From: an uncultured Granulosicoccaceae bacterium
GTDB lineage: Bacteria; Pseudomonadota; Gammaproteobacteria; Granulosicoccales; Granulosicoccaceae
Direction of reading: 5' to 3'
Assembly: GCA_937928685.1 (NCBI GenBank)
Contig: CALGJU010000156.1
Location: 1-58,090 of the forward strand
Length of the DNA: 58,090 nt
Below the pieces are notes generated by a model. It worked only from the letters and a program-made list of their open reading frames with translations, ran no database searches and was not told where the DNA came from. The position numbers and the translations under genes were made by a program. Below are positions 8,920 to 39,156 of this stretch, one piece after another. Every line of letters begins with the position of its first letter. Positions within the stretch are counted from its first letter, which is position 1.

Positions 8920-9630
8920 ATGTCAGAAGAAGAATACGACGACGAAGAAGAGATTATTCTCTCAGAACTTAGTGACGACGAACTGGTCGAGCAAATGCAC
9001 GACGATTTGTACAACGGTTTGCGCGACGAGATTGCCGAAGGCACCAACATACTGCTGGAGCGAAAATGGGGGCCTGACAAGGTACTTAACGATGCGCTGG
9101 TAGAGGGCATGCGAATTGTCGGTATCGACTTCCGTGACGGCATATTGTTTGTGCCGGAAGTGCTGATGGCCGCTAATGCCATGAAAGGCGGCATGGAAAT
9201 TTTACGCCCACTGCTTGCTGAGACCGGCGCTGAAACTATCGGCAAAATGGTTATAGGCACGGTGAAAGGCGACATCCACGATATCGGTAAAAATCTGGTG
9301 TCGATGATGATGGAAGGGGCAGGATTTGAAGTCATTGACCTTGGCATCAATAACCCGGTTGAAGACTACCTTGCAGCGCTTGAAGAGCATAAGCCGGAAA
9401 TCCTTGGTATGTCGGCGCTTCTCACCACTACCATGCCCTATATGAAAGTTGTCATTGATACGCTCAAAGAACAGGGTATCCGCGACGACTACATCGTACT
9501 GGTAGGTGGAGCCCCATTGAATGAAGAGTTCAGCGATGCAATCGGTGCAAATGCGTACTGTCGGGATGCAGCCGTAGCGGTTGAAACCGCCTCTAAGTTG
9601 ATCGCCGAACGCCGGGCAGCTGCGAGCTAA
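8920..9630 (+). CDS. Cobalamin-binding corrinoid protein (methyltransferase cognate corrinoid protein)
   Basis: Carries the B12-binding motifs DIHDIGKN (DxHxxG), SALLTTT (SxL) and LVGGAPL (GG). An N-terminal helical cap domain is preceded by a very acidic 33-aa tail (MSEEEYDDEEEIILSELSDDELVEQMHDD). The RBS is GGAGAG. Confidence 0.9.
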   Translation: MSEEEYDDEEEIILSELSDDELVEQMHDDLYNGLRDEIAEGTNILLERKWGPDKVLNDALVEGMRIVGIDFRDGILFVPEVLMAANAMKGGMEILRPLLAETGAETIGKMVIGTVKGDIHDIGKNLVSMMMEGAGFEVIDLGINNPVEDYLAALEEHKPEILGMSALLTTTMPYMKVVIDTLKEQGIRDDYIVLVGGAPLNEEFSDAIGANAYCRDAAVAVETASKLIAERRAAAS

Positions 9631-9632
9631 CC

Positions 9633-10247
9633 TTGCACGCACAGCCTGCTCTAGTAATCGCCTGCGGAGCATTGGCTCGAGAAATAACGACGTTAATTGA
9701 TATCAATCAATGGTCGCAACTGCGGGTACAGTGTGTACCCGCCAAAATCCACAACACTCCCGACAAAATTCCTGATGCCGTACGCAGCCTGATACATAAG
9801 GCGCGTGACAACTACTCGCAAATATTCATTGCCTTTGCGGACTGCGGCACAGGGGGTTTACTAGACACCGTCATTCAGGAAGAAAACGTCGAAAGATTAC
9901 CGGGCGCACACTGCTATGAGTTTCTAGCAGGTAGTGAGACATTTAAACAGATGTCGGAAGATGAGCTGGGTACTTTTTATTTAACCGACTTTCTGGCTCG
10001 CCACTTTGATCGAATCATTATCAAAGAGCTTGGTATAGCCAAACACCCCGAGTTACTTGACATGTATTTCGGCAACTACAAAAAACTTATTTATCTGGCG
10101 CAAACAGACAACCCTGAACTAATGCAAATGGCGCAGGATGCAGCATCAAGACTCAACCTAGAGTACGAGTATCGCCGCACCAATTACGGTGAGCTTGAAA
10201 GCGGACTCAAACAGTTCAACGAAAGTGTTATTCAATGGCAAAACTAA
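9633..10247 (+). CDS. DUF1638-family protein (function unknown, typically linked to corrinoid methyltransferase genes)
   Basis: 204 aa, starting 3 nt after the corrinoid gene stop with a TTG start in the track. The family assignment is from recall of DUF1638 sequence character and its usual neighbourhood. No catalytic motif was recognised. Confidence 0.65.
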   Translation: MHAQPALVIACGALAREITTLIDINQWSQLRVQCVPAKIHNTPDKIPDAVRSLIHKARDNYSQIFIAFADCGTGGLLDTVIQEENVERLPGAHCYEFLAGSETFKQMSEDELGTFYLTDFLARHFDRIIIKELGIAKHPELLDMYFGNYKKLIYLAQTDNPELMQMAQDAASRLNLEYEYRRTNYGELESGLKQFNESVIQWQN

Positions 10248-10576
10248 TCACGGTTTACTGGCGCGATATTCCGGCACAAGTCACTGCAAAGGCCGGTCGT
10301 AAAACTGCCAAAATTCAACTGACTGATCGCTTTCAGGAAGCGATAGATATGGCCGCTATGCGCGCCGGAAAAGGCGGTACAGAAGCCTACCTTGAAGACT
10401 GGCGTCGCGAGCAAAGAGAATGCTCCAACGACCTGGACATGGAGGTAGCCGCAGCCGCACAAGCCATTGAAGAACAGTTTGATCTGGCCGCACTGCAAGC
10501 AATAGTAAAGAACAAAGGCATCGCAGATAAAAGCATTGCAGATCCTGACAGTTCAACCACCAGTACTGACGAGTAA
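10235..10576 (+). CDS. Small conserved protein of unknown function (family often auto-annotated as virulence factor)
   Basis: 113 aa. Overlaps the upstream gene by 13 nt, which suggests coupled translation. The protein is hydrophilic with an acidic C-terminus. Confidence 0.55.
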   Translation: MAKLITVYWRDIPAQVTAKAGRKTAKIQLTDRFQEAIDMAAMRAGKGGTEAYLEDWRREQRECSNDLDMEVAAAAQAIEEQFDLAALQAIVKNKGIADKSIADPDSSTTSTDE

Positions 10577-10582
10577 AACCCT

Positions 10583-11041
10583 TTGTATAAGGTCAGACTA
10601 TGGTCGGTGCGCCGCGCCCGTGCGTTGGAAATTTTCTATAACGCATTCGAAAAAATCGTTGTTGCACTGCACCCTGTGTGGAAGTTCGTCGGCTACGAGC
10701 GAATAGAAAAACCGTTTGCCGTCACTGAAAAAGTGGTTAAAGGATTTCTTTTTGATTGCCAGATGTGTGGCCAGTGCGCATTGAGCTCTACCGGTATGTC
10801 GTGCCCGATGAACTGCCCCAAAAGTTTGCGCAACGGACCTTGTGGCGGTGTGAGAAGCAACGGCAACTGCGAAATCAAACCGGACATGGCATGCGTTTGG
10901 GTTAAAGCCTGGGAAGGCAATGCGCTAATGTCAGAGAACAAGGTACACGTAGTGCAGTTTCCAGTGAACCATCAGTGGCGTGGTCGCTCCTCATGGTTAG
11001 CCGTGGCGCGCGATAAAAATCAGCCAGCGGATAAAAGCTGA
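10583..11041 (+). CDS. Methylenetetrahydrofolate reductase C-terminal-domain protein (MetV-like Cys-rich subunit)
   Basis: Contains the cysteine cluster CQMCGQCALSSTGMSCPMNCPKSLRNGPCGG. Its stop overlaps the next start (TGATG). The start codon is uncertain: TTG at 10583 or GTG at 10607. Confidence 0.75.
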   Translation: MYKVRLWSVRRARALEIFYNAFEKIVVALHPVWKFVGYERIEKPFAVTEKVVKGFLFDCQMCGQCALSSTGMSCPMNCPKSLRNGPCGGVRSNGNCEIKPDMACVWVKAWEGNALMSENKVHVVQFPVNHQWRGRSSWLAVARDKNQPADKS

Positions 11042-12033
11042 TGGAAAAACGCAACGTTCATTTATCACCGGCAGAGCTATTACCCATTCTTCCAGGTCAC
11101 AGTTCGCCCGGAAGATTCGAACGTGTGCTGCGGGCAGGGAAATTTGCCGTCAGCACCGAACTTGCTCCCCCGGATTCCGCAGACCCGGCACAGGTGTATG
11201 AACGTGCCAGCGTGTTTGATGGCTACGTTGATGCAATAAACGCCACTGACGGCAGCGGCGCGCATTGTCATATGTCGAGTGTTGCCGTATGTGGCCTGCT
11301 AACCCGCGCCGGCTACTCACCCATCATGCAAATATCCTGTCGTGATAAAAACCGTATCGCAATACAAGGCGATATCCTTGGTGCATCGGCCATGGGGGTC
11401 GCCAATATACTCTGCTTAAGCGGAGATGGTGTTGAGTCCGGTGATCATCCTCAGGCCAAATCGGTATTCGATCTTGACTGCATGTCACTACTGCAAATCA
11501 GTAAAAACATGCGCGACAATTCAACGTTTGAAAGTGGCCGCAAGCTCGACAAGGCACCCGCCGTATTCTTAGGTGCTGCAGCCAATCCGTTTGCACCACC
11601 GTACGAATTCCGCGCTGATCGTCTGGCAAAAAAAGTCGCCGCCGGTGCACAGTTTGTTCAAACGCAGTACTGCTACGACATTGACATGTTAAAAAACTAT
11701 ATGCATCAGGTTCGTGAACTGGGCTTAGATAAAAAAATATATATCCTGGTGGGTGTCGGGCCGTTGGCTTCCGCTAAAACAGCTGAATGGATTCGCAAGA
11801 ATGTGCCTGGCGTGCATATTCCGGATGCCGTGGTAAAACGCCTTGCCGGGGCAGAAAATCAACGTGCAGAAGTCATCCAGCTGTGCATAGACATGATTCA
11901 ACAAGTCAGTGAAATAGAAGGCGTTCACGGCTGCCATATTATGGCTTACCGTCAGGAACATACTGTGCCCGAAATAGTTGAACGCTCCGGCATTCTGTCG
12001 CTACGCAATAGACGTCAGGCGCCCACACGCTGA
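11041..12033 (+). CDS. metF: Methylenetetrahydrofolate reductase (MetF-like)
   Basis: 330-aa TIM-barrel MTHFR-like sequence (TELAPP, INATDG, SCRDKNR, LCLSGD). Translationally coupled to the MetV-like gene. Confidence 0.85.
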   Translation: MEKRNVHLSPAELLPILPGHSSPGRFERVLRAGKFAVSTELAPPDSADPAQVYERASVFDGYVDAINATDGSGAHCHMSSVAVCGLLTRAGYSPIMQISCRDKNRIAIQGDILGASAMGVANILCLSGDGVESGDHPQAKSVFDLDCMSLLQISKNMRDNSTFESGRKLDKAPAVFLGAAANPFAPPYEFRADRLAKKVAAGAQFVQTQYCYDIDMLKNYMHQVRELGLDKKIYILVGVGPLASAKTAEWIRKNVPGVHIPDAVVKRLAGAENQRAEVIQLCIDMIQQVSEIEGVHGCHIMAYRQEHTVPEIVERSGILSLRNRRQAPTR

Positions 12034-12106
12034 CCCCGATCTCAACGGTCAGTTACATTCCATAGACTGACTTCCATAGTTTTCAGATAATTTCCGGGAC
12101 ACCCCT

Positions 12107-13009
12107 ATGACTGAAACCGTTATCGGTTCCGCCAAACGCGATCACATCATTGGTTTTAACAAACCATTCACTATGATCGGTGAAAGAATCAACCCGACCG
12201 GGCGAAAGCTACTCGCTGAAGAAATGAAGAACGGCGATTTCAGTCGAGTGGAAGCAGATGCTATCGCCCAGATTGAAGCGGGCGCGCATATGCTAGATAT
12301 CAATGCAGGCATCCCACTGGCAGATGAGCCTGCGTTACTGGCACAAGCTATCGAGTTGGTACAGTCGATCAGCGACATTCCTATCTGTATAGACTCGTCA
12401 ATTATCGAAGCGCTGGATCGCGGCCTGCAGGTCTACAACGGTCGCGCCTTAGTTAACTCCGTTACCGGCGAGATGGAACAGCTTGAACGTGTAATGCCTC
12501 TGGTCAAGAAATACGACGCCGCAGTGGTCGCAATATCAAACGATGAAACCGGTATTTCAGAAGATCCGGCAGTGCGCTTCGCTGTGGCCAAGAAAATCGT
12601 AGAGCATGCAGCAGACTATGGCATCAAAGCCTGTGACGTAGTCATAGACCCACTGGTGATGCCAATCGGTGCCATGGGGCAAGCTGGTCGCCAGGTGTTT
12701 GATATCGTCGGACGTATTCAACGCGAACTAAAGTGCAACACCACTTGTGGCGCTTCAAATGTCAGCTTTGGTCTGCCCAACCGTGATGGTATTAACGGTG
12801 CCTTTTTATCGATGGCTATCTCACACGGAATGACTTCTGCAATAACTAACCCCATACATAAAGAGGTCATGGAATCAGTCATGGCGGCGGACGTGCTTAT
12901 GGGACACGACCCGGATTGCCTGAATTGGATTGGAAAGTATCGAGAACCGCCCAAAGACGGCGACGGACGCGGCCGCCGGGTATCAAAAAGAAAACGACCA
13001 GCAAAATAG
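12107..13009 (+). CDS. Methyltetrahydrofolate:corrinoid methyltransferase (pterin-binding domain, AcsE/MtrH/MetH-module-like)
   Basis: Pterin-binding barrel motifs (IGERINPTGRK, LDINAG, NSVTGE, GASNVSFGLP). The C-terminus is arginine/lysine rich (GRGRRVSKRKRPAK). Confidence 0.85.
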   Translation: MTETVIGSAKRDHIIGFNKPFTMIGERINPTGRKLLAEEMKNGDFSRVEADAIAQIEAGAHMLDINAGIPLADEPALLAQAIELVQSISDIPICIDSSIIEALDRGLQVYNGRALVNSVTGEMEQLERVMPLVKKYDAAVVAISNDETGISEDPAVRFAVAKKIVEHAADYGIKACDVVIDPLVMPIGAMGQAGRQVFDIVGRIQRELKCNTTCGASNVSFGLPNRDGINGAFLSMAISHGMTSAITNPIHKEVMESVMAADVLMGHDPDCLNWIGKYREPPKDGDGRGRRVSKRKRPAK

Positions 13010-13087
13010 CCTCAAGTAGCAACGGCCGGTCATAGGTCGATTTAACACAAGGCGTGCACAAGTGGCACAGCCGCAGGAGTTTCGCCG

Positions 13088-15136
13088 ATGTCAGAATCTT
13101 CCACTCAAAGCCTGCCGGACCAGCCAAGTCAGGTTAAACAGGTAAAAGTAGTCTTTACCCCAAGCGGCAAACGCGGCCATTTTCCGGTGAATACACCGGT
13201 TCTGGAAGCCGCCCGTGCACTGGGGGTGGATATCGACTCGGTTTGTGGCGGCCGTGCCATCTGCGGGCGCTGCCAGGTGCTATGTGCCGAAGGCGAGTTT
13301 TCAAAACACGAGATCGTCTCTGACGCAAAAAATCTGTCGGCCTTTACCAAAACCGAAGAACGCTGGGAGAAGGTAAAAAAGCTATCACTTGATGGGCGTC
13401 GTCTCAGTTGTCAGGCACAGTTGCTGGGCGATGTGGTTATAGATGTGCCACCTGACAGCCAGGTGCACAAACAGGTCATTAGAAAAGGCGCTGATCTGCT
13501 CGATATAGAGCTCGATCCATTAGTGAGGCTGTACTTTGTTCAGGTGGAAGAACCTGACATGCATTCGCCGACCGGTGACCTGCAACGCCTTAAGCTGGCT
13601 CTCGAACAGGAATGGCAGCTAACAGACTTAAGGTTTGAATCTTCGTTGCTACCTACTCTGCAACCCGTTCTGCGTAAGGGAGATTGGCAGGTCACTGTGG
13701 CCGTCGCAGAAGATAACAACATTGTCGCGCTATGGCCGGGACTCAAAGAGCAAGTACTCGGCATAGCGATAGACGTCGGTTCAACCACAATCGCCGCACA
13801 CCTATGTGATTTATTAAGCGGCGATGTACTGGCCTCCTCCGGCATCATGAATCCACAGATTCGCTTTGGCGAAGATCTAATGAGCCGTGTCTCCTATGTG
13901 ATGATGAACCCGGGGGGCGAAGTTGAGATGACGAAAGTGGTTCGCGAAGCGATCAATACCTTAGTCACTGCCACCACAGAAGAAATAGAAGCCGATCTCG
14001 CAGACGTTATGGCTATGACCTTAGTTGCCAACCCGGTGATGCACCATCTGCTACTGGGTATCAACCCGGTTGAGCTGGGCGGAGCTCCATTCGCGCTTGC
14101 CACTGATGAAGCGTTCCGCTGTAATGCCAGTGAACTAAACTTTAACACTCACCCCAATGCACAAGTCTATGTACTGCCATGTATCGCAGGCCATGTAGGC
14201 GCCGATACTGCAGGGGTAATATTGGCAGAACGACCCGATACAATGAGTGACATCACTCTCCTGGTTGATGTTGGCACCAATGCAGAGATTGTCCTTGGTA
14301 ATAACGAAAGAATACTCGCCTGTTCGAGCCCGACAGGCCCGGCATTTGAAGGCGCTCAAATCAGTGGCGGTCAACGAGCAGCGCCGGGTGCCATTGAACG
14401 CGTAAGAATTGATCCTGAAACACTCGAACCTAAGTTCAGTATTATCGGCAGTGAATTATGGTCGGATGATCCAGGTTTTGACGCATCCATTGAATCACTC
14501 GGCGTCACCGGTATCTGTGGCAGTGGAATTATCGAAGTGGTGGCAGAAATGTTTCTGGCAGGCTTGATTGACACCAACGGCGTTATCAGCTCAGCGCATG
14601 CAGATAAGTCTGATCGTGTGATTGAAAACGACAGAACGTTTTCTTATCTGCTGCACGATGGCGACGTAAGAATAGTCATCACTCAAAATGATGTGAGACA
14701 AATACAACTGGCTAAGGCTGCGTTGTACGCCGGGGTCCGATTATTGATGGACAGACTGGAAGTTGAACAAGTTGATCGTATCCGCTTAGCGGGTGCATTC
14801 GGCAGCCACATTGATGTTAAGTATGCGATGATCCTCGGTTTGATACCGGACTGCATTCTTAGCAATGTATCTTCAGCGGGCAATGCAGCAGGATCCGGTG
14901 CACGTATGGCGCTGCTTAATCGACGTACCAGAGACGATATTGAACAGCTGGTGAATCAGGTCGAAAAAATTGAAACTGCTGTCGAGCAGAAGTTTCAGGA
15001 TCATTTCGTTGAAGCCATGGGAATTCCGCATAAAACTGCGAAATTCCCAATGCTTTCAGAGCAGGTTACGCTGCCCGAACCGACGCCTGCATCAAGCGGC
15101 GGGCGGAGCGCTCGCCGCAGACGGCGCAGAAGCTGA
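13088..15136 (+). CDS. Reductive activator of corrinoid enzymes (2Fe-2S ferredoxin domain + ASKHA ATPase domain)
   Basis: N-terminal plant-type ferredoxin motif (CGGRAICGRCQV) followed by a large ASKHA-type domain (DVGSTTIAAHL, DVGTNAEI, GICGSG). The C-terminus ends in GGRSARRRRRRS. Confidence 0.85.
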   Translation: MSESSTQSLPDQPSQVKQVKVVFTPSGKRGHFPVNTPVLEAARALGVDIDSVCGGRAICGRCQVLCAEGEFSKHEIVSDAKNLSAFTKTEERWEKVKKLSLDGRRLSCQAQLLGDVVIDVPPDSQVHKQVIRKGADLLDIELDPLVRLYFVQVEEPDMHSPTGDLQRLKLALEQEWQLTDLRFESSLLPTLQPVLRKGDWQVTVAVAEDNNIVALWPGLKEQVLGIAIDVGSTTIAAHLCDLLSGDVLASSGIMNPQIRFGEDLMSRVSYVMMNPGGEVEMTKVVREAINTLVTATTEEIEADLADVMAMTLVANPVMHHLLLGINPVELGGAPFALATDEAFRCNASELNFNTHPNAQVYVLPCIAGHVGADTAGVILAERPDTMSDITLLVDVGTNAEIVLGNNERILACSSPTGPAFEGAQISGGQRAAPGAIERVRIDPETLEPKFSIIGSELWSDDPGFDASIESLGVTGICGSGIIEVVAEMFLAGLIDTNGVISSAHADKSDRVIENDRTFSYLLHDGDVRIVITQNDVRQIQLAKAALYAGVRLLMDRLEVEQVDRIRLAGAFGSHIDVKYAMILGLIPDCILSNVSSAGNAAGSGARMALLNRRTRDDIEQLVNQVEKIETAVEQKFQDHFVEAMGIPHKTAKFPMLSEQVTLPEPTPASSGGRSARRRRRRS

Positions 15137-16168
15137 ACACACAGTGGTGCGACGAAGATTAGACGCTTTACTGTCTTTCTTCGCCTTACTGGCTTCAACT
15201 TGGCCCGCTGCTCTACGCCGCTCATCACGCGGTGGCAGACCAAAGGTATCGCGGTAGCATTTGCTGAAGTGTGGCGCTGATATAAAACCACACGCCAGTG
15301 CAATATCAACAATCGGCATACTAGTCTGCAGCAACAGCTGTCTTGCACGCTCCAATCTAAGCTCAAGATAATATCGGGTCGGTACGCACTGAAGATAGCG
15401 TTGATACAAACGCTCTAATTGTCTGCGTGACAATCCGACGTGAAAAGACAATTCATCAAGCGTCATAGGCTCTTCGATGTTTGCTTCCATCAACGATACC
15501 GCCTCTGCCAGCTTAGGCTGGTTTGTGCCTATACGCTGCGTTAACGGAACGCGTTGTCTGTCGTGTTTGTCTCTGATTCTATCGCACATGAACTGTTCGA
15601 TAATCGCAGAGGCGAGGTCAGCTCCATGTGAGTTCCTGATCTCGTGCAGAATCATATCCAACGGCGCAATTCCACCCGCGCTCGTATAGCGATTCTCATC
15701 GATTTCAAACAGCTCAGGGGAAATCACCAAATGAGGGAATTCCTCTCTGGCACTGGCCATGTTTTCCCAATGGATAGTGCAGCGGTGTCCATCAAGCGCA
15801 TCGGCTTTGGCCAGCACGTAGGTGCCAGTACATATTGCACCTAAGGTCATATCCCGCTTTGAAAGCGACCGCACCCACGCCGTTACATCGGCATCGCTAT
15901 GATGTTGAATTTGATTGCCGGAACATACAAATACTGCATCAAATTGGGGCGCATCATGGATTGAACAATCCGGAGTGATTGGTATGCCATTGCTGGCGTC
16001 GATAGCATCTCGCGATGCACCGATCGTTGTCCATTCGTAGAGGCTTTCGCCTGAAAGTTGATTCGCCATTCGAAGTGGCTCGAGAGCCGACGAAAATGCG
16101 AGCATTGAAAAATCGGATATTAAAAGAAAACCGATCTTAGTCGGCCCGGAGCTCTTGCTTTTTATCAT
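15092..16168 (-). CDS. GlxA-family (DJ-1/PfpI domain + AraC HTH) transcriptional regulator, GbdR/CdhR-like
   Basis: N-terminal class-I amidotransferase-like domain and C-terminal AraC HTH (LSRRQLERLYQ ... FISAPHFSKCYRDTFG). The 3' end overlaps the convergent activator gene by 45 nt. Confidence 0.85.
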   Translation of the reverse strand: MIKSKSSGPTKIGFLLISDFSMLAFSSALEPLRMANQLSGESLYEWTTIGASRDAIDASNGIPITPDCSIHDAPQFDAVFVCSGNQIQHHSDADVTAWVRSLSKRDMTLGAICTGTYVLAKADALDGHRCTIHWENMASAREEFPHLVISPELFEIDENRYTSAGGIAPLDMILHEIRNSHGADLASAIIEQFMCDRIRDKHDRQRVPLTQRIGTNQPKLAEAVSLMEANIEEPMTLDELSFHVGLSRRQLERLYQRYLQCVPTRYYLELRLERARQLLLQTSMPIVDIALACGFISAPHFSKCYRDTFGLPPRDERRRAAGQVEASKAKKDSKASNLRRTTVCSASAPSAASAPPAA

Positions 16169-16703
16169 GCAGTTTATTCCAACCAGTAGCGTGTCTAGTA
16201 GTGCTCAAGATGCTCACGCTTTTTTTTTACTGGTCCGCAATGGCTGCACTTCCTGTGCTTTTGACCGCGATTCTATGATTGATCGCTCTACGTCGCGTGG
16301 GCCTCACTCTGTTCTCGAAGCAGCACGATGATGTACTGTTTGCGACATTTTAGCTTAGGGCCAGATCATTTCACGATAAGGTGCCAAGACGGTATAAACC
16401 GCTATTTGTTATAGTGTTTTCTCATAAACCACTTTTTAGCCATTGATAACTAACCAGTAATTATATTACTGCCCGGTTCAAAAAAATCAGAATTTTATTC
16501 AGGAAATTAGTAATAACTGAACAAAAACAACCCAGTTGACGAGAAATATTTACATTTGCAGCATCAAAATGCTTCTTGATCGCGACTATTTCTGATTCGC
16601 CTGGACGAATAAACGCACCCGCATTAGCTATTTGCGCCGTCAGTAATTGAGCGGCAAAACTCGAAAGTGCTTCGTACTTTGCCGCTCCAGTCATCAGCCA
16701 GAC

Positions 16704-18251
16704 CTAATAATTCGCATCAGGAAATGATGATTTTCTCTGCTCAATGTAAGCCAACAAAGCCTCATCGACCGCTGGATCAATGGCAGGCGCTTCGTAGCTC
16801 TCGAGCATACTTTTCATTTTTACATTGGCTCTTTGTGAGGTGTCCAGTGACCCTTCAGATTCCCACTGTTCAAAGCTGTTGTTGTCTGCCAGGTCTGAAC
16901 GGTAAAACGCCGCTTCAAAGTTTCTTTGCGTGTGATCGCAGCCGAGGAAGTGCTGGCCTGGTCCCACTTCACGCAAGGCATCCAGGGCCTGGCCGTTCTC
17001 ACTGAAGTCCAAACCTTCACCAAACACTTGCAGCATGCCCGCCTGATCAGCGTCCATAACAAATTTTTCATAACTCATTACCAGCCCGCCTTCCAGCCAG
17101 CCAGCGGTGTGCAACATGAAATTAACACCTGCAAGCATGGCAGATTGCAATGTGTTGGCAGCTTCATAAGCCGCCTGGGCGTCAGGCAGTTTCGACGCAT
17201 TGAGTCCGCCACCGGATCTGAATGGAACACCCAGACGGCGCGCCAACTCCGCGGCGATGTATAACACTGAGGTGGGTTCCGGTGTACCAAACGTGGGCGC
17301 ACCCGACTGCATCGAAATACTGCTCGCAAAGGTGCCAAACACCACCGGGGCACCAGGGCGCACCAGCTGCACAAAAGCCATGCCCGCCAGTGCTTCAGCC
17401 AGAATCTGGGTCACGGTACCAACAACTGTGACCGGAGACATTGCACCGGCGAGAATAAATGGCGATATCACTGTCGCCTGATTGGCCAGCGCATAAGTCT
17501 CCGCTGCGCCGAGCATGGTGTCGTCGAAGGTCATCGGGGAATTGGCATTGATCAAGTTGATCACCACCGTTTTTTCATTGCCGGTATCAGGGTCTATATA
17601 GTCATCACCAAATAGTATTTTCGACATTTCAACGGTATCTTGCGCACGCTCCGCCGCTGTCACCGAACCCATATAGGGCTTGTCGCTATAGCGCATATGC
17701 GAATACACCATATCGAAGTGACGTTTGTTGACCGGTAGATCAACCGGCTCACAAACGGTGCCGCCAGAGTGGTGCAGCGATGGCGACATATACGCCAACT
17801 TCACAAAGTTCTGAAAGTCTTCGATATTGGCGTAGCGCCTGCCATTATCAAGATCACGCACAAAAGGCGAGCCATAAGCCGGCACCAATACAGTATTGTC
17901 GCCACCGACGACCACACTTCGGGCCGGGTTGCGGGCATGCTGAACAAATTCTCTCGGCGCACTGTCCTGGATTATCTTGCGACACATGCCACGCGGAAAA
18001 CGGACCCGCTCACCGTCAATATCGGCCCCTGCCTGTTTGAACAACTCCAGCGCACGGGGAAAGTCCCTGAACTCAATGCCGATCTCTTCGAGCACTGTGT
18101 CAGCGTTGTGCTCGATTAGCTCTAATTGCTCTTGTGTTGCATGACAATAAGACGGAATGCGCCGCTTAATATAGGGCGCAACAGGGGCCTGGTTCGCCGC
18201 ACGGGCTCGCTTGTCTTCGCGTCCGCCCCTTCTTCTTCTCTTTCCTGCCAT
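16704..18251 (-). CDS. MttB-superfamily methyltransferase, non-pyrrolysine class (quaternary amine:corrinoid methyltransferase candidate)
   Basis: 515 aa with typical MttB-family blocks (SPMTFDD, GAMSPVTVVG, AEALAG, GAPTFGTPEP, GWLEGGLVMSYEKF). There is no in-frame TAG. The N-terminus is MAGKRRRRGGREDKRARA. Confidence 0.92.
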   Translation of the reverse strand: MAGKRRRRGGREDKRARAANQAPVAPYIKRRIPSYCHATQEQLELIEHNADTVLEEIGIEFRDFPRALELFKQAGADIDGERVRFPRGMCRKIIQDSAPREFVQHARNPARSVVVGGDNTVLVPAYGSPFVRDLDNGRRYANIEDFQNFVKLAYMSPSLHHSGGTVCEPVDLPVNKRHFDMVYSHMRYSDKPYMGSVTAAERAQDTVEMSKILFGDDYIDPDTGNEKTVVINLINANSPMTFDDTMLGAAETYALANQATVISPFILAGAMSPVTVVGTVTQILAEALAGMAFVQLVRPGAPVVFGTFASSISMQSGAPTFGTPEPTSVLYIAAELARRLGVPFRSGGGLNASKLPDAQAAYEAANTLQSAMLAGVNFMLHTAGWLEGGLVMSYEKFVMDADQAGMLQVFGEGLDFSENGQALDALREVGPGQHFLGCDHTQRNFEAAFYRSDLADNNSFEQWESEGSLDTSQRANVKMKSMLESYEAPAIDPAVDEALLAYIEQRKSSFPDANY

Positions 18252-18660: not shown

Positions 18661-18899
18661 GACAAATGTAGCCGCGAAACGGCACACCGGAGCAAATCAA
18701 TTTTGGCGCGACAAACGCTGAGCCATCAAACTCTTCATGAACCATCATTATATGACCCATGCAAGGTGACAACAGGGATGTAGGTAAATAAAGTACACAT
18801 AGCTTTGCGTGGTCAAATCAGCGAAAATATCCTTAATTAATTATCCACTTTTCACTCTAAATACGTATTGCATCAGTCTTGAAATTCAGGCTGTCCACA

Positions 18900-21566
18900 A
18901 TGGGAAAAGCAATGGCAAATCCTCCAGATAAGAAAATTCCGGGCACGGACAAAATCAACCAGGCAACAAGCGATCTCACAAACCAGGCCGACGCATTAGC
19001 GAAAAAAGCCGCAGCAACTGCATCGGCGGCAAAAACATCTACCACAGACGCTGCGAAATCAGTCGTTACCGGCGGCACTGCAACGGGTGGAGCTGTGCCA
19101 CAGCCGGGCAACCGGGGTTCGGGGGGTAGACCTGCGATACCGGGTCAAAACGCTGCCCCGTCATCAGATACACCGCCGCCATTGCCAAAGACTGCAACTA
19201 CCACTAATACGTCAGCGCCTGCTACACCACCAGTGATTCCTGCTGATGCAGCGAAAAATACAACTAACACGGCTGCTGCAAACAGAGCTCAGCCGGCCCG
19301 ACCGCCGGTGGCCAGACCCGCCTCCGCCGCGCAGACTTCGAGCAGAACTGAAAGCCCCAGACCAAAACAATCAGCTTCCAGCGTGTCATCAAGTGAAACT
19401 GAAGTTCGTCGCAGCTCACTAGAGCGACCGGTCAGCGCTACAGACAACACCCACCGCTCGGCAGCGCAAAGAACTGCCCAAAGCATGGACGCAAACCGTC
19501 GTCCGATGCGCCGGGAGGGCTCAGGACGCCCTGCAGCAGACAGACCGCGATCGGCCCGACCGGGATCACGTCCACCTGCCCGGCCAGACACACGCCCCGT
19601 CTATCGTGATTCCCGCCCAAGACGTGCAATGGCTCCACCGCCAGGAGCACGGAAAGGCAGATACGTCGCTCCCGCCGCACGCGCTCGTCGCCCGGGCTAT
19701 GTTGTCCCACCGGCGGTAGCTGCTGATGGCGGCACTGCATGGGGCCCTTTGTTATTCGGGGTTTTGTTGCTGTTGGGGGTGCTGTGGTACGCGATCAAGC
19801 ACTACGCACCAATGATCAACGCCGATTTAACTACCCGCACTAACACCGCCTTGTCAGAAGCTGGCTACGATTCTGCTTCAGTCGAGATTGACGGAAGAAG
19901 TGCCATCCTCACTGGCAACGTTGACGCCCAACCTGATAGCGAGCGCGCCGAAGAGGTGGTTGCCAGCACTATTGGTGTACGTGATGTTGACAACCAACTG
20001 ACCGTCGGTACTACTGACACCGCACAAGTCGAACGCACAGAATCTAGCCTGACATTCTTTGCGACTGAGGCCGGAGTCAAGTTATCTGGCACAGTGTCCG
20101 ATCAGGAATACGCCACCAGAATAGAAACCACAGCCAAAGAGGCTTACGGAGAAGACCGTGTTAGCGGAAGTATCAAAGTTGATGCAAACACGACCAATCC
20201 GGGCTGGTGGCCAGCGGTTCAACAACTGACTCCAGACCTCAATGGTATTGAAGGTGGTTCTTTCTCCGTAATGAACGGCTCGCTGTTACTCACTGGATCT
20301 GCAAGCGACGAGCAAGCCAAAAGCGATATCGGAGCGAAAGCCGCGGAACTGCTAAACGGCCAACTCACTGTTGACAACAGAATTACCGTTCCAACAACCG
20401 CGGCCCCTGCACCGGCACCTCTGAAACCGGGCTTTGCAACAATCTACAACAGCCCTGATCGAATCGCACTCTATGGCAGCCTGCCTGCTGATAGTGCAGC
20501 GGCAATTGAAAGTGCTCTCGACAGCGCAGATAAACCGGTAGCGAGTTTTATAACTACAAGCGACGAGTTCGAAGCGCCTTCCTGGGCAGCCAGCCTCGGC
20601 GGATCATTGAACGCGATGCTGGACATCGAAAAAGCAAAAGTGAAAGTACAGCCTTCCGGAGACGTACTCATATCCGGCATCGCCACTTCTGATGACGCCA
20701 AGCAGACAGCCGGCGACAATGTATCTGCGTTGTTCCCCGATCAGTCCATTGACAACCGAATCGCGGTTCGAGTCCCGGCAGCGGCGCCAGCGCCACAACC
20801 AGCACCCGAGCCAGAGCCAGAACCAGAGGTTGCACCTGCGCCGTTTATGAAGCCTTTCGCAACAATAACGGACCTGGGCTCGAAGGTAACCATCATGGGT
20901 CTACTGCCAGCGGCCACCACCGAATCGATCACACGCGCCTTTGAGGGCGCTGGTCGGTCTGTTGTCACCAATGTCACCATCGATGAACGAGTTATGGCGC
21001 CTGTATGGGGCGATGCCATCACGCAATCGCTTGATACCCTGCGCGGCATTGAAAACGCTAAGATGGCTGTGTCATCAGCCGGCGATGTCACAATCAGCGG
21101 AATCTCTGCAAACGAAGGTGAACGCCAGCGCGCTGCGGACAATAGCCTGGCAGCGTTTGGCAACTCTGTGAGTTTGCGCAACGACATTACAGTCAAAGGC
21201 CCTGATATTAGCGAGCTGTTTGCACAGATCGATCTGGCAGCAATCCGGTTCCGTTCAAACAGTTCCGAATTGGATTCAGATAGCATCAGTATTCTGGATC
21301 AGGTTGCCGACGCGCTATTTCAAATACCAGATGCCACGGTGGCCATTTCAGGCCATACCGACGCAACCGGTAAAGATGAGCGCAATCGGGTACTGAGCGC
21401 TGAGCGGGCCGAACGGGTGAGAAGTTTCCTGATCGATCGCGGTATCAGCGGTGACAGAATGACATCACAGGGCTATGGTTCCAGCCAACCTATAGCTTCC
21501 AACAACACGGTTACCGGTCGGGCCCTAAATCGACGCATCGAATTTGGGTTCACCAACGGAGAATAG
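18900..21566 (+). CDS. Large inner-membrane-anchored BON-domain / OmpA-C-like peptidoglycan-binding protein
   Basis: The N-terminal approximately 290 aa are a Pro/Ala/Arg/Ser-rich low-complexity region. One TM helix follows (LLFGVLLLLGVLWYAI), then BON-like modules ending in the DNxLTV/DNRITV motif. The C-terminal OmpA domain reads RFRSNSSEL ... GHTDATG ... NRRIEF. The start could be ATG 18900, ATG 18912 or the track TTG at 18879. Confidence 0.85.
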   Translation: MGKAMANPPDKKIPGTDKINQATSDLTNQADALAKKAAATASAAKTSTTDAAKSVVTGGTATGGAVPQPGNRGSGGRPAIPGQNAAPSSDTPPPLPKTATTTNTSAPATPPVIPADAAKNTTNTAAANRAQPARPPVARPASAAQTSSRTESPRPKQSASSVSSSETEVRRSSLERPVSATDNTHRSAAQRTAQSMDANRRPMRREGSGRPAADRPRSARPGSRPPARPDTRPVYRDSRPRRAMAPPPGARKGRYVAPAARARRPGYVVPPAVAADGGTAWGPLLFGVLLLLGVLWYAIKHYAPMINADLTTRTNTALSEAGYDSASVEIDGRSAILTGNVDAQPDSERAEEVVASTIGVRDVDNQLTVGTTDTAQVERTESSLTFFATEAGVKLSGTVSDQEYATRIETTAKEAYGEDRVSGSIKVDANTTNPGWWPAVQQLTPDLNGIEGGSFSVMNGSLLLTGSASDEQAKSDIGAKAAELLNGQLTVDNRITVPTTAAPAPAPLKPGFATIYNSPDRIALYGSLPADSAAAIESALDSADKPVASFITTSDEFEAPSWAASLGGSLNAMLDIEKAKVKVQPSGDVLISGIATSDDAKQTAGDNVSALFPDQSIDNRIAVRVPAAAPAPQPAPEPEPEPEVAPAPFMKPFATITDLGSKVTIMGLLPAATTESITRAFEGAGRSVVTNVTIDERVMAPVWGDAITQSLDTLRGIENAKMAVSSAGDVTISGISANEGERQRAADNSLAAFGNSVSLRNDITVKGPDISELFAQIDLAAIRFRSNSSELDSDSISILDQVADALFQIPDATVAISGHTDATGKDERNRVLSAERAERVRSFLIDRGISGDRMTSQGYGSSQPIASNNTVTGRALNRRIEFGFTNGE

Positions 21567-38000: not shown

Positions 38001-38100
38001 ACAAGCTCCCGTCGGTCGGCATGTAAATCGCAGACTAGCACGGAACATATGATCCGGCTTGTGGTTACCGCCGGACAAATTATCTTATAGAAAAGAAGCA

Positions 38101-39156
38101 ATGACTAACATCATCACCGAAATGCTGCAGGAAAAACCGTACCTGCTCGCCGATGGCGCCACAGGTACCAACCTATTCAGCATGGGCCTGCAAACAGGCG
38201 ACTCACCGGAGTTCTGGAACGCCGACCACCCTGACCGGGTGACTCGTCACTACGACAGCTTCATTGAAGCCGGGTCCGACCTGGTGCTGACGAATACGTT
38301 TGGTGGCAACAAGTACCGATTGCAGCTCCACAACGGTGAGAAGCGTGTCACAGAACTCAATGAGCGCTCTGCCGCATTGCTTCGCGACGCAGTAGATAAG
38401 AGCGGCCGCAAAGTCATCGTCGCCGGTGACATGGGACCGACGGGTGAAATTTTTGAACCGGCCGGCACACTCACCATCGATGCGGCGGCAGAAGCCTTTG
38501 CAGAGCAGGCACAAGCTCTAGCCAATGGCGGTGCTGACATCATTTGGGTTGAAACACTTTCATCGCTGGAGGAAGCACGTGCCGCCTTCATTGGCGCAAA
38601 AACCACGGGCTTACCGATAGTTTTCAGCATGAGCATTGATACCAACGGTCGAACCATGATGGGTGTCACTGCGAAAGACATTGTCGAGCTCGCCTCTGAG
38701 ATGTTGCCGGAACTCACTGGCTGCGGCACCAATTGCGGAGTCGGCGCAGCTGAAGTGGTGGCTGCAATGATGAATATGAAGAAAGCCTGCAGCGAGTTTC
38801 AGGAACCACCGGCATTCATCGCGAAGGCCAACTGCGGCATCCCTGAGTACGTTGACGGTAAAATCGTCTACAACGGCACACCGGAACTTATGGCTCGTTA
38901 CGCGCAGCTTGCATTCGATGCGGGTGCAAAAATAATTGGCGGCTGCTGCGGAACATCGCCAGAGCACATTCGTACCATGAAGGACGCATTAGACAACTAC
39001 GCAGGCGGCCCGGCTCCAAGCCTTGAAGAAGTTGTCGCAGTCCTGGGTGAAGTTTCAGTGGGTGCGACATCACAATTGCAGGGCGACATGACTGTTGCCG
39101 GGGGTTCCGTATCAGGTAACGCACAAAGACGCAGTCGCCGCAGACGTCCTGCGTAA
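38101..39156 (+). CDS. Homocysteine S-methyltransferase domain protein (BHMT/MetH-Hcy-module-like)
   Basis: Pfam-02574-like barrel (DGATGTNL, VLTNTFG) with zinc ligands at GTNCGVG and GGCCGTSPEHI. The C-terminal tail is QRRSRRRRPA. Confidence 0.88.
   Translation: MTNIITEMLQEKPYLLADGATGTNLFSMGLQTGDSPEFWNADHPDRVTRHYDSFIEAGSDLVLTNTFGGNKYRLQLHNGEKRVTELNERSAALLRDAVDKSGRKVIVAGDMGPTGEIFEPAGTLTIDAAAEAFAEQAQALANGGADIIWVETLSSLEEARAAFIGAKTTGLPIVFSMSIDTNGRTMMGVTAKDIVELASEMLPELTGCGTNCGVGAAEVVAAMMNMKKACSEFQEPPAFIAKANCGIPEYVDGKIVYNGTPELMARYAQLAFDAGAKIIGGCCGTSPEHIRTMKDALDNYAGGPAPSLEEVVAVLGEVSVGATSQLQGDMTVAGGSVSGNAQRRSRRRRPA

Follow-up and report, generated by a model that had tools for sequence, protein, structure and literature searches.

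Conserved charged termini in an MtgBCDE-type split cobalamin methyltransferase system point to a putative electrostatic docking code

In the DNA of an uncultured Granulosicoccaceae bacterium (contig CALGJU010000156.1, positions 1 to 58,090, the whole stretch analysed and referred to here as the window) the corrinoid carrier of a cobalamin methyltransferase system begins with an acidic extension, and each of its four partner enzymes carries an Arg-rich peptide at a free terminus. The Arg-rich tails are conserved in orthologous loci, are specific to the partners and co-vary with the acidic extension. From this comparative evidence we infer, with a probability of roughly 55%, that the Arg peptides act as a tether, binding in trans to the carrier's acidic cap extension or surface. 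The enzyme system is already known, and what the sequences point to is an undescribed electrostatic docking code. The sequence-only reading of the window had not been aware of such a mechanism having been described, and charged termini of MtgBCDE are indeed not mentioned in PMC12478193, PMC5764234 or the other literature searched.

This gene cluster represents the MtgBCDE/RamA split cobalamin methyltransferase system, already known from prior accounts (Price 2018; Mausz 2025), and the Pfam assignments across it agree with the system of PMC12478193 and PMC5764234. The features are as follows.

8920..9630, forward strand: MtgC, cap plus B12-binding corrinoid carrier, the hub (Pfam PF02607 and PF02310)
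8920..9012, forward strand: acidic N-terminal extension of MtgC, residues 1-31 (orthologue profile and AF2)
9633..10247, forward strand: DUF1638 protein, B12 reactivation accessory, without a charged tail (PF07796)
10235..10576, forward strand: PF13769 small protein, tail-free (Pfam)
10583-11041, forward strand: MetF C-terminal-domain protein, without a conserved tail (PF12225)
11041-12033, forward strand: MetF2, without a conserved tail (PF02219)
12107..13009, forward strand: MtgD, methyl-THF:corrinoid methyltransferase, pterin-binding TIM barrel (PF00809)
12947..13006, forward strand: C-terminal linker and Arg/Lys tail of MtgD, residues 281-300, PPKDGDGRGRRVSKRKRPAK, beyond the MeTr fold
13088..15136, forward strand: RamA/RACo-type reductive activator, 2Fe-2S and ASKHA (PF00111, PF17650, PF17651, PF14574)
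15038..15133, forward strand: C-terminal linker and poly-Arg tail of RamA, residues 651-682, beyond RACo 3ZYY
15092..16168, reverse strand: GlxA/AraC-type regulator, non-partner (PF01965 and PF12833)
16704..18251, reverse strand: MttB-superfamily non-pyrrolysine methyltransferase, MtgB-type methyl donor enzyme (PF06253, 754 bits)
18177..18251, reverse strand: N-terminal Arg-rich segment of MttB, residues 1-25 (alignment against 4YYC and 2QNE/9YCE)
38059..39156, forward strand: MtgE, homocysteine S-methyltransferase (PF02574), with its tail at 39118-39153

The gene set, consisting of an MttB-family protein, a cap plus B12 corrinoid protein, a pterin-binding methyltransferase, MetF2, a RamA-like activator, a DUF1638 protein and a separate homocysteine methyltransferase, is identical to that of Ruegeria pomeroyi, Phaeobacter inhibens and Sinorhizobium meliloti (PMC12478193; PMC5764234), although here it occurs in a Gammaproteobacterium with all genes save mtgE clustered. 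MtgC is a stand-alone cap plus B12-binding corrinoid protein of the proteobacterial MtgC clade. Its identity is 76-89% to the MtgC proteins of 80 genomes, including Rhodobacteraceae and Rhizobiaceae, and 78% to the cobalamin-binding protein of S. meliloti, its nearest relative being the MtgC of a Granulosicoccaceae MAG. Its start is credible, with GGAGAG 7 nt upstream of the ATG. MtgD is a separate pterin-binding methyltransferase with MetF2 adjacent, MtgE is a separate homocysteine-binding methyltransferase, and the RamA-like ASKHA/2Fe-2S activator is accompanied by the DUF1638 protein. The MttB homologue is an uninterrupted 515-aa ORF, matches S. meliloti 4YYC at E=6e-228 and D. hafniense MtgB at E=1e-133, and is, by homology, of the MtgB type; its start is also credible as there is no alternative in-frame ATG, GTG or TTG ahead of the conserved core. 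The function appears to be that of the MtgBCDE split methionine synthase/glycine betaine methyltransferase, for which PMC12478193 gives experimental evidence in R. pomeroyi. The 3' end of the regulator gene overlaps the codons of the RamA tail. The mtgE gene lies 20 kb from the cluster and has nonetheless kept its tail; mtgE is usually not near mtgBCD (PMC12478193).

All the charged tails located by the sequence-only reading were recovered at their positions in the window. MtgC begins with MSEEEYDDEEEIILSELSDDELVEQMHDDLYNG and MttB with MAGKRRRRGGREDKRARA, while MtgD ends in GRGRRVSKRKRPAK, RamA in GGRSARRRRRRS and the distal MtgE in NAQRRSRRRRPA. The first 33 residues of MtgC contain 15 Asp/Glu and 0 Lys/Arg, with a net charge of -15 across the first 30; this start had been called mostly Asp/Glu, and acidic it is, although "mostly" slightly overstates a proportion of 45%. 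When some 50 crudely called genes of the window were ranked by the net charge of their 20-residue termini, the four most basic termini (+7, +7, +6 and +6, the next being +5) were exactly those of MttB, MtgD, RamA and MtgE, and the lowest (-11, the next being -6) was that of MtgC. The chance of four pre-named proteins holding the top four termini is about 4e-6 if ranks are random (8/100 x 6/99 x 4/98 x 2/97). The observation of charged termini on MtgC and its partners, the distal MtgE included, is confirmed.

The tails are made up of Arg, Gly, Ala and Pro (Arg 26-29%, Gly 12-20%), GR or GGR being common in them, and each partner carries about 7 Arg in its last 25 residues. Arg is strongly favoured over Lys, at 471:22 in MtgD tails and at 101:19 in tails even where GC is below 50%, and the terminal Arg stands 1-2 residues short of the C-terminus. 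These are short charged peptides at a free terminus, placed beyond a variable extension, with linkers that measure 22-45 residues in MtgD and no fewer than 29 in RamA. By comparison with MeTr 2YCI, the fold of MtgD finishes near residue 280, and the tail lies past the solved fold; in RamA the alignment to RACo 3ZYY (E=1.5e-95) reaches residue 650. The Arg-rich segment of MttB is present in 4YYC and absent from D. hafniense MtgB (2QNE/9YCE). The proteins of S. meliloti, a cultured and independently annotated organism, bear the same tails, with bmt, the counterpart of MtgE, ending in ...ARERRRRA.

The comparison of orthologous clusters that the sequence-only reading had proposed covered 169 loci, with co-variation assessed over about 160 clusters: 95 with an acidic MtgC (class A, from Alpha-, Beta- and Gammaproteobacteria and Actinomycetota) and 69 with a corrinoid protein minus the acidic extension (class B, including complete MttB, corrinoid, pterin and RamA clusters). 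A tail was counted as Arg-rich with at least 4 Arg in the terminal segment (the last 20 residues for MtgD). The acidic start motif of MtgC, M-(D/E)n-Φ-x-L-x-x-L-x-D-E-E-L-x-x-Q-x-H-D-D-L-Y, was found in 95/95 class-A loci. Arg-rich C-termini occurred in 67/68 class-A against 4/25 class-B MtgD proteins, in 62/63 against 2/20 RamA proteins and in 12/12 against 0/8 MtgE proteins. Arg-rich N-termini of MttB-family proteins were present in 39/40 against 3/22, the class-A proteins including paralogues at 25-38% identity. Moreover, the complete MtgD, RamA and MtgE orthologues in 80 genomes are all Arg-rich at the end. Across four classes or phyla the tails are thus near-universal in orthologues and co-vary with the acidic MtgC N-terminus, whereas class-B loci with an equal enzyme set (L086, L088 and L091-L109) are tail-free. 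In L082 a divergent acidic MtgC (62% identity) still has partners with Arg tails, and in L149, of class B, the partners have short Lys/Arg tips and the MtgC N-terminus is not acidic. The number of acidic residues in MtgC also correlates with the mean Arg count of the tails (rho 0.36, p 0.002, uncorrected for phylogeny). At the sequence level the hub therefore has a conserved site that co-varies with the partner peptides, the events being phylogenetically non-independent. The acidic clade is monophyletic, its cluster probably moves horizontally as a unit, and the charged-termini trait probably arose once; the co-variation may consequently represent one evolutionary event, and Fisher p-values overstate its independence.

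The sequence-only reading had seen no comparable tail on unrelated proteins of the window, and in the wider count tails are not equally common on such proteins: 28/28 partners were Arg-rich against a background of 10/172 other ORFs. The co-operonic non-partners, namely the DUF1638, PF13769 and MetF proteins, have no conserved tails. None of 34 DUF1638 orthologues (0/34) has a C-terminal run rich in Arg, taken as 4 or more Arg within 8 residues; the last 20 residues of this protein have a median of 2 Arg (n=64), and the 7 with as many as 4 Arg do not form a conserved tail. The orthologue C-termini of MetF and of the MetF C-terminal-domain protein are likewise not Arg-rich. Lack of conservation in orthologues and equal frequency on unrelated proteins were the outcomes that the sequence-only reading had named as refuting its idea, and neither was observed. 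The DUF1638 protein is genetically needed for the pathway yet lacks a tail, an observation that counts against the tether reading.

The acidic "tail" of MtgC is acidic and conserved, although it is not the floppy element that the word suggests, since the AF2 model, which has an overall pLDDT of 90 and resembles MttC and the MetH Cob domain, predicts disorder for residues 1-8 and no others. The pLDDT is below 50 at residues 1-8, 88 at 11-20 and 96 at 21-30, and residues 9-31 are predicted to form an ordered, amphipathic, acidic extension of the cap domain (pLDDT about 88-96). The region can be divided into a poly-acidic tip (1-8, predicted disordered), which is short in most orthologues, a clade-specific part (9-22) and the beginning of cap helix 1 (23-31, QMHDDLY). 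Among 87 unique orthologues the L/Φ positions are invariant, Asp/Glu occupies 10/21 positions and Lys/Arg accounts for only 19/2384 residues. The extension is absent from 1Y80, MttC and MetH, whose alignments begin at query residues 22-32.

In the known system MtgC is methylated by the MttB-type enzyme or MtgD, demethylated by MtgD or MtgE and re-reduced by RamA. The MtgC of this clade has gained an acidic amphipathic cap extension with a variable poly-acidic tip, and in each of four partner classes a short Arg-rich peptide has been added to a free terminus, carried in MtgD and RamA on a 20-45-residue extension past the fold. The proposed tether would be salt-sensitive and fast-exchanging, would raise the local concentration of MtgC partners, overcome the repulsion among net-acidic proteins and let mutually exclusive partners alternate on MtgC; it may also keep the cap off cobalamin while a partner docks. 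The comparison with MetH is consistent with this, as its Fol, Cap-Cob and Hcy modules are homologous to the split proteins (in human MetH, Fol 365-653 aligns to MtgD 15-282 and Cap-Cob 671-870 to MtgC 22-207) and in both cases the B12 domain visits several modules in turn. The MetH modules are covalently tethered, whereas here separate polypeptides have complementary charged ends. Since the MtgD C-terminus and the MtgC N-terminus sit at the covalent Fol-Cap linker of MetH, the charged pair would stand in for it non-covalently. Reactivation also differs, with RamA here in place of the AdoMet domain, and an additional MttB-type donor is served. In methanogens partner docking takes place via the MtaC N-terminal domain in MtaBC (2I2X) and via the MttC cap with the MttB dimerisation loop (7XCN; PMC9842639). 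The likeness is that an N-terminal or cap element of the corrinoid protein recognises the partner, and MttC in 7XCN is the structure nearest to the MtgC AF2 model; nevertheless the methanogen systems rely on shape-complementary contacts with a single cognate partner and have neither poly-Arg tails nor an acidic extension. Because sister four-component systems work tail-free, tethering is not required for function, and the tails are a clade-specific refinement and not a necessity of shuttling.

The tails may instead be functional with their receptor elsewhere, on another MtgC surface, on the PF13769 or DUF1638 proteins or in cis by fold-back (autoinhibition or solubility), which we consider unlikely. 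As most of the MtgC "tail" is predicted to be ordered, the receptor could be a surface patch and not the N-terminus itself, and class-A MtgC does carry further acidic residues particular to the clade, as well as charge reversals, in both its cap and its Rossmann domain; nevertheless the most conspicuous class-A-specific acidic feature is the N-extension, present in all 95 loci. The PF13769 protein occurs only alongside the acidic-type MtgC (61/76 class-A and 0/35 class-B loci), but it and DUF1638 are only mildly acidic and about 20% of class-A loci have tails without it. Fold-back could be accommodated by the partner domains, all strongly net acidic (MtgD -15, RamA -36, MttB -22, MtgE -18), and every component is net acidic when its tail is left out; however, binding in cis leaves the restriction of tails to MtgC-docking proteins unexplained.

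It is improbable that the tails serve co-localisation, by binding RNA, DNA, polyphosphate or an anionic membrane or by forming a coacervate-like compartment with the acidic MtgC. Their composition does resemble RGG or Arg-rich nucleic-acid-binding motifs and relatives of the partners are oligomeric, MttB forming hexamers and MeTr and RACo being dimers in their PDB entries. However, we expect MtgC to be monomeric and monovalent, the loci contain no scaffold or shell gene, and the strict limitation to MtgC partners together with the acidic co-variation is more simply explained by direct pairing. We also see little probability in the extension being purely intramolecular, for cap-on stability or cob(I)alamin protection in aerobes, with the Arg tails as an unrelated co-inherited trait. 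The predicted order and invariant hydrophobic positions of the extension would suit this explanation, and in a monophyletic clade joint presence could be hitch-hiking; yet four non-homologous families would need to gain and retain like tails which same-operon non-partners did not gain, MtgE has retained its tail at 20 kb, and the quantitative correlation of charge counts speaks against hitch-hiking. Artefacts are effectively refuted, be they GC-driven Arg codons, over-extended ORFs or a Tat-type export signal suggested by the consecutive Arg close to the MttB N-terminus: many related genomes are GC-rich, with Arg-rich spurious ORFs, but the window has a GC content of 50%, tails persist below that value, stop codons fix the C-terminal ones, they are conserved as protein across phyla despite different codons, and the MttB segment is included in the NCBI annotation and in the crystallised 4YYC construct. 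The candidate Tat signal of MttB, MAGKRRRRGGREDKRARAANQAPVAPYIKRR, was rejected: in such a signal an S/T-R-R-x-F-L-K motif is followed by a hydrophobic h-region and an AxA cleavage site, both of which are absent here, and the like tails on the other partners are C-terminal.

Bacterial SSB is a hub whose short acidic C-terminal tip recruits many partners, and histone H1 with prothymosin-alpha forms a highly charged disordered pair. By analogy, the arrangement proposed here may share with such hubs a conserved acidic terminal element, competing non-homologous partners, flexible linkers and charge-driven fast exchange. The polarity is reversed, the partners bearing short peptides and the hub a largely ordered patch; binding is inferred here, and the setting is a metabolic methyl-transfer relay. 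A bolder and more tentative proposal than the tether is that a portable "docking code", made up of the Arg peptide and the acidic cap extension, marks MtgC clients, replaces the MetH linkers and couples capture to cap displacement. If so, new clients could be predicted from sequence, such as MttB paralogues with an Arg-rich N-terminus, the paralogue L002_16 with an Arg-rich C-terminus would be a further candidate, and synthetic B12 methyl-transfer relays could be wired through an added tail.

According to PMC12478193, MtgBCDE is a major route by which glycine betaine is demethylated, and many abundant marine bacteria have no other methionine synthase. The literature searched gives no account of how four or more different enzymes share a single small B12 carrier. 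If the tails prove dispensable the finding shrinks to a curious clade marker. A conserved charge code, if true, would offer a concrete and easily testable mechanism and a sequence signature for MttB paralogues and other methyltransferases that feed the MtgC hub. It would also be a natural case of electrostatic linkers replacing covalent domain linkers after the splitting of a multidomain enzyme, and may provide an engineering handle for methyl-transfer pathways.

The window genes were identified by ORF listing and Pfam scans. Those of the corrinoid carrier MtgC, of the partners that dock on it and of their neighbours are the following:

8920-9630, + strand: MtgC, cap and B12-binding corrinoid protein (PF02607 and PF02310)
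9633-10247, + strand: DUF1638 protein (PF07796)
10235-10576, + strand: small protein (PF13769)
10583-11041, + strand: MetF C-terminal-domain protein (PF12225)
11041-12033, + strand: MetF (MetF2; PF02219)
12107-13009, + strand: MtgD, pterin-binding methyltransferase (PF00809)
13088-15136, + strand: RamA, RACo/RamA-type activator (2Fe-2S and ASKHA domains)
15092-16168, - strand: GlxA/AraC regulator
16704-18251, - strand: MttB-family methyltransferase
38059-39156, + strand: MtgE, homocysteine S-methyltransferase, 20 kb from the cluster (PF02574)

Fitness genetics in Phaeobacter inhibens had brought out the same genes as a 'split methionine synthase' (PMC5764234), and in Ruegeria pomeroyi they were shown to act as both glycine betaine methyltransferase and methionine synthase and were called MtgB/C/D/E (PMC12478193), so that the enzyme system itself is not new. 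The MtgE ORF as listed starts with TTG and its Pfam domain begins at residue 29; an ATG at codon 15 (MTNIITEML...) is the likelier start, and the C-terminal tail is not affected. ramA and the GlxA/AraC-type regulator gene are convergent, and their 3' ends overlap by 45 nt (15092-15136), a stretch that takes in the codons of the poly-Arg tail. The ORF at 18879-21566 (+) encodes a BON and OmpA-domain protein with a long Arg/Pro/Ala-rich low-complexity stretch at about residues 150-270, so that an unrelated protein also has an Arg-rich region, though an internal and not a terminal one. The 908-aa protein encoded at 21569-24295 (+) has weak coiled-coil matches alone (crescentin rod, CCDC113), all under the Pfam thresholds.

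The sequence-only reading had placed an acidic N-terminus on MtgC and poly-Arg ends on its partners, and the ORF listing bears out each of these peptides and its position. Among about 50 crude genes of the window, the most basic 20-residue termini are the N-terminus of the MttB homologue (+7) and the C-termini of MtgD (+7), RamA (+6) and MtgE (+6), and the most acidic is the N-terminus of MtgC (-11 over 20 residues, -15 over 30); the next-ranked termini stand at +5 and -6. Since the GC content of the window is 50%, the charge of these termini is not a GC effect. A composition artefact was rejected on this ground and because the preference for Arg is kept in related loci below 50% GC (Arg:Lys 101:19). 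A start-codon artefact was also rejected, the start codons of the charged-terminus genes being sound, as was a Tat signal, considered for the N-terminus of MttB.

RACo (3ZYY) stops at the equivalent of RamA residue ~650 of 682 and MeTr (2YCI) at that of MtgD residue 280 of 300, the MtgB of D. hafniense begins at the equivalent of MttB residue 27-32, and the alignments of corrinoid proteins and MetH to MtgC start only at MtgC residue 22-32. As the solved homologues from anaerobes begin or end with their folds, the charged segments are add-ons to otherwise ordinary folds. An Arg-rich N-terminus is present in S. meliloti 4YYC, the one solved close relative. Without the terminal 30 residues the Mtg components of the window are strongly net acidic (MtgC -15, MtgD -15, RamA -36, MttB -22, MtgE -18), and thus the basic tails are islands on acidic proteins.

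One genome per species was scanned with an MtgC alignment, giving 80 loci from Gamma-, Beta- and Alphaproteobacteria and Actinomycetota (the last in Acidimicrobiales, Planktophila and Thermoleophilia). Their MtgC is 76-89% identical to that of the window, the closest relative being from a Granulosicoccaceae MAG. Because this identity across phyla far exceeds the expectation from vertical descent, the mtg cluster probably moves horizontally as a unit. The tails are conserved, and every complete MtgD, RamA and MtgE of the 80 loci has an Arg-rich end, for example ...GRREGGHRRRPA, ...GRRRGGRRRSR or ...RERRGRRRA. A median of 7 Arg is found in the last 25 residues, with the final Arg 1-2 residues from the end, and the Arg:Lys counts are 471:22 in MtgD, 402:48 in RamA and 73:8 in MtgE. 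The Arg run of MtgD sits on an extension of 22-45 residues past the fold, and Arg, Gly, Ala, Glu and Pro are the commonest of its last 25 residues. MttB orthologues (57-74% identity) begin with Arg-rich segments such as GRRSGGRAARRA, as do more distant MttB paralogues of 25-38% identity. The distant MttB-family paralogue L002_16 (508 aa, 24% identity) has no N-terminal Arg segment and ends in ...ASRRRRTARSVAL / ...RTRQHASRRRRTARSVAL, the tail thus appearing to be placed at the opposite terminus. In the cultured and independently annotated S. meliloti, the annotated MtgC, MttB (the 4YYC protein), MtgD, RamA and 'bmt' (MtgE) share these features.

The start of MtgC is always M followed by 0-12 acidic residues and [DE][DE][DE]-[ILF]-[DI]-L-x-x-L-x-D-[ED]-E-L-[VT]-[EQ]-Q-[MV]-H-D-D-L-Y, and Lys and Arg make up only 19 of the 2384 residues of 87 unique N-termini. 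AlphaFold2 gave a pLDDT of 62 with a shallow alignment (88-100% identity) and a mean of 90 with a more diverse one. The model is most like MttC in the MttB-MttC complex and the Cob domains of MetH. In it the pLDDT is below 50 for residues 1-8, 88 on average for 11-20 and 96 for 21-30, with a helical turn at 14-16 and a helix at 19-31 that continues into the cap bundle. This model and the invariant hydrophobic positions indicate that most of the acidic element is a predicted ordered, amphipathic extension of the cap. Floppiness is confined to the poly-acidic tip, which is unusually long in the window. The whole protein has a net charge of -29. Clade-specific acidic residues or charge reversals are also found elsewhere in acidic-type MtgC: Asp70 is invariant where 74% of other corrinoid proteins are basic, Glu155 and Glu184 occupy positions that are ~50% basic in the others, Asn86 one that is 96% basic, and residue 192 is likewise among the positions with a clade-specific charge change.

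A second set of 80 metagenomic loci, centred on more distantly related corrinoid proteins, and single look-ups were added, and the 169 pooled sources gave 95 loci with acidic MtgC (class A) and 69 whose corrinoid protein has no acidic extension (class B). The representative-library search, rich in fragments and over-extended calls, served only to choose diverse sequences. The charge of the MtgC N-segment is -6 to -15 in class A (median -10) and has a median of 0 in class B. The basic tails go with acidic MtgC, as at least 4 Arg in the terminal segment were counted in 67/68 MtgD, 62/63 RamA, 12/12 MtgE and 39/40 MttB of class A, whereas the class-B counts are 4/25, 2/20, 0/8 and 3/22, two of the three MttB positives being over-extended GC-rich ORFs. 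Clusters of identical architecture (MttB, corrinoid protein, pterin methyltransferase and RamA, for example L086 and L091-L109) occur in class B too, and their proteins reach no further than the fold. In locus L082, with a divergent acidic MtgC (62% identity), RamA and MtgE are still Arg-tailed, and in the outgroup L085, with a weakly acidic MtgC (44% identity), the end of RamA is weakly basic. Within class A, MtgC proteins with more acidic residues at the N-terminus tend to go with tails of higher mean Arg count (Spearman 0.36, p 0.002). Fisher tests on the classes (p ~1e-5 to 1e-16) carry no phylogenetic correction and are descriptive only; the class-A loci form one clade whose cluster probably spreads horizontally as a unit, and a single origin may underlie the association. 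Locus L149 (metagenome contig Ga0209121_10007203) has a non-acidic corrinoid N-terminus, yet its partners bear short Lys/Arg tips (MtgD homologue ...YRKRRKGM; one MttB homologue MTLSSKRRKRSG...), and departs from the co-variation, or is possibly an independent, weaker version. No methyltransferases were found on the contig of P0240, a non-acidic corrinoid protein. A search of 150 representatives for methyltransferases fused to acidic-type MtgC gave none that was informative, the long matches being class-B fusions or over-called ORFs.

The tails are also specific to the partners. At least 4 Arg among the last 20 residues were counted in 28/28 MtgD, RamA and MtgE from class-A loci of less than 56% GC, compared with 10/172 of the remaining ORFs (200 aa or longer), in which they are mostly scattered. 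The claim that unrelated proteins have no such tail stands for the neighbours, since DUF1638, the PF13769 protein, MetF2, the MetF C-terminal-domain protein and the regulator have no conserved Arg-rich end; these tail-free co-operonic proteins are those that do not need to reach the cobalamin. When additional tailed clients were sought among neighbouring ORFs, the matches were AspRS, CcmC, a GntR regulator and spurious GC-rich ORFs. The PF13769 ('Virulence_fact') protein, for which there is no relative of solved structure, is a candidate for a clade-specific accessory in the Mtg system.

Electrostatic tethering had been proposed between these termini. The comparisons show that the tails are conserved, specific and co-varying and how they are placed topologically; binding of the tails to MtgC, with its kinetic consequences, is what we infer. 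Unaided encounters would be electrostatically unfavourable because the partner domains and MtgC are all strongly acidic. The proposal is that flexible extensions, of sufficient length to pass round a TIM barrel, present the Arg peptides in trans to the acidic cap extension or surface of MtgC; binding there would give a salt-sensitive, fast-exchanging tether common to mutually exclusive partners. As the receptor would sit on the cap, it is conceivable, if speculative, that tail binding helps to keep the cap off the corrin ring during docking of the Rossmann domain. The pairing of MtgD with MtgC makes clear topological sense by comparison with human MetH: MtgD 15-282 aligns with its Fol domain (365-653) and MtgC 22-207 with its Cap-Cob region (671-870), and by these boundaries the MtgD tail and the MtgC extension stand where MetH has the Fol-Cap linker. 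A precedent is given by MtaC and MttC, in which N-terminal or cap elements of the corrinoid proteins mediate docking (PMC9842639).

Direct tethering of tail to cap is given a probability of 0.55. Against it, sister systems function without tails, DUF1638 has none, and L149 has basic tips without an acidic corrinoid N-terminus. The receptor may instead be another acidic surface, the partner's own domain or a class-specific accessory, the last favoured by the occurrence of the PF13769 protein in 61/76 class-A and 0/35 class-B loci. Alternatively, the ligand of the Arg/Gly-rich tails may be nucleic acid, polyphosphate or membrane, or the tails may promote a condensate. A further reading has the MtgC extension wholly intramolecular and the tails merely co-inherited. 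That the tails are artefacts is essentially excluded by the GC content of the window, the conservation in orthologues, the use of Arg over Lys, the tails at low GC and the S. meliloti annotation.

Neither of the two studies that defined the gene set (PMC12478193, PMC5764234) mentions the charged termini, nor does a 2025 MtgBCD preprint, a 2026 MtgB structure paper or the MttB-MttC structure paper (PMC9842639). A full-text literature search on related terms, in which not all journals are covered and an earlier mention is possible, returned no description of the tails. The tails are very probably functional parts of the Mtg system, and what is new in this known pathway is a conserved feature, not described before and presumed to serve docking, whose physical type is familiar in general.
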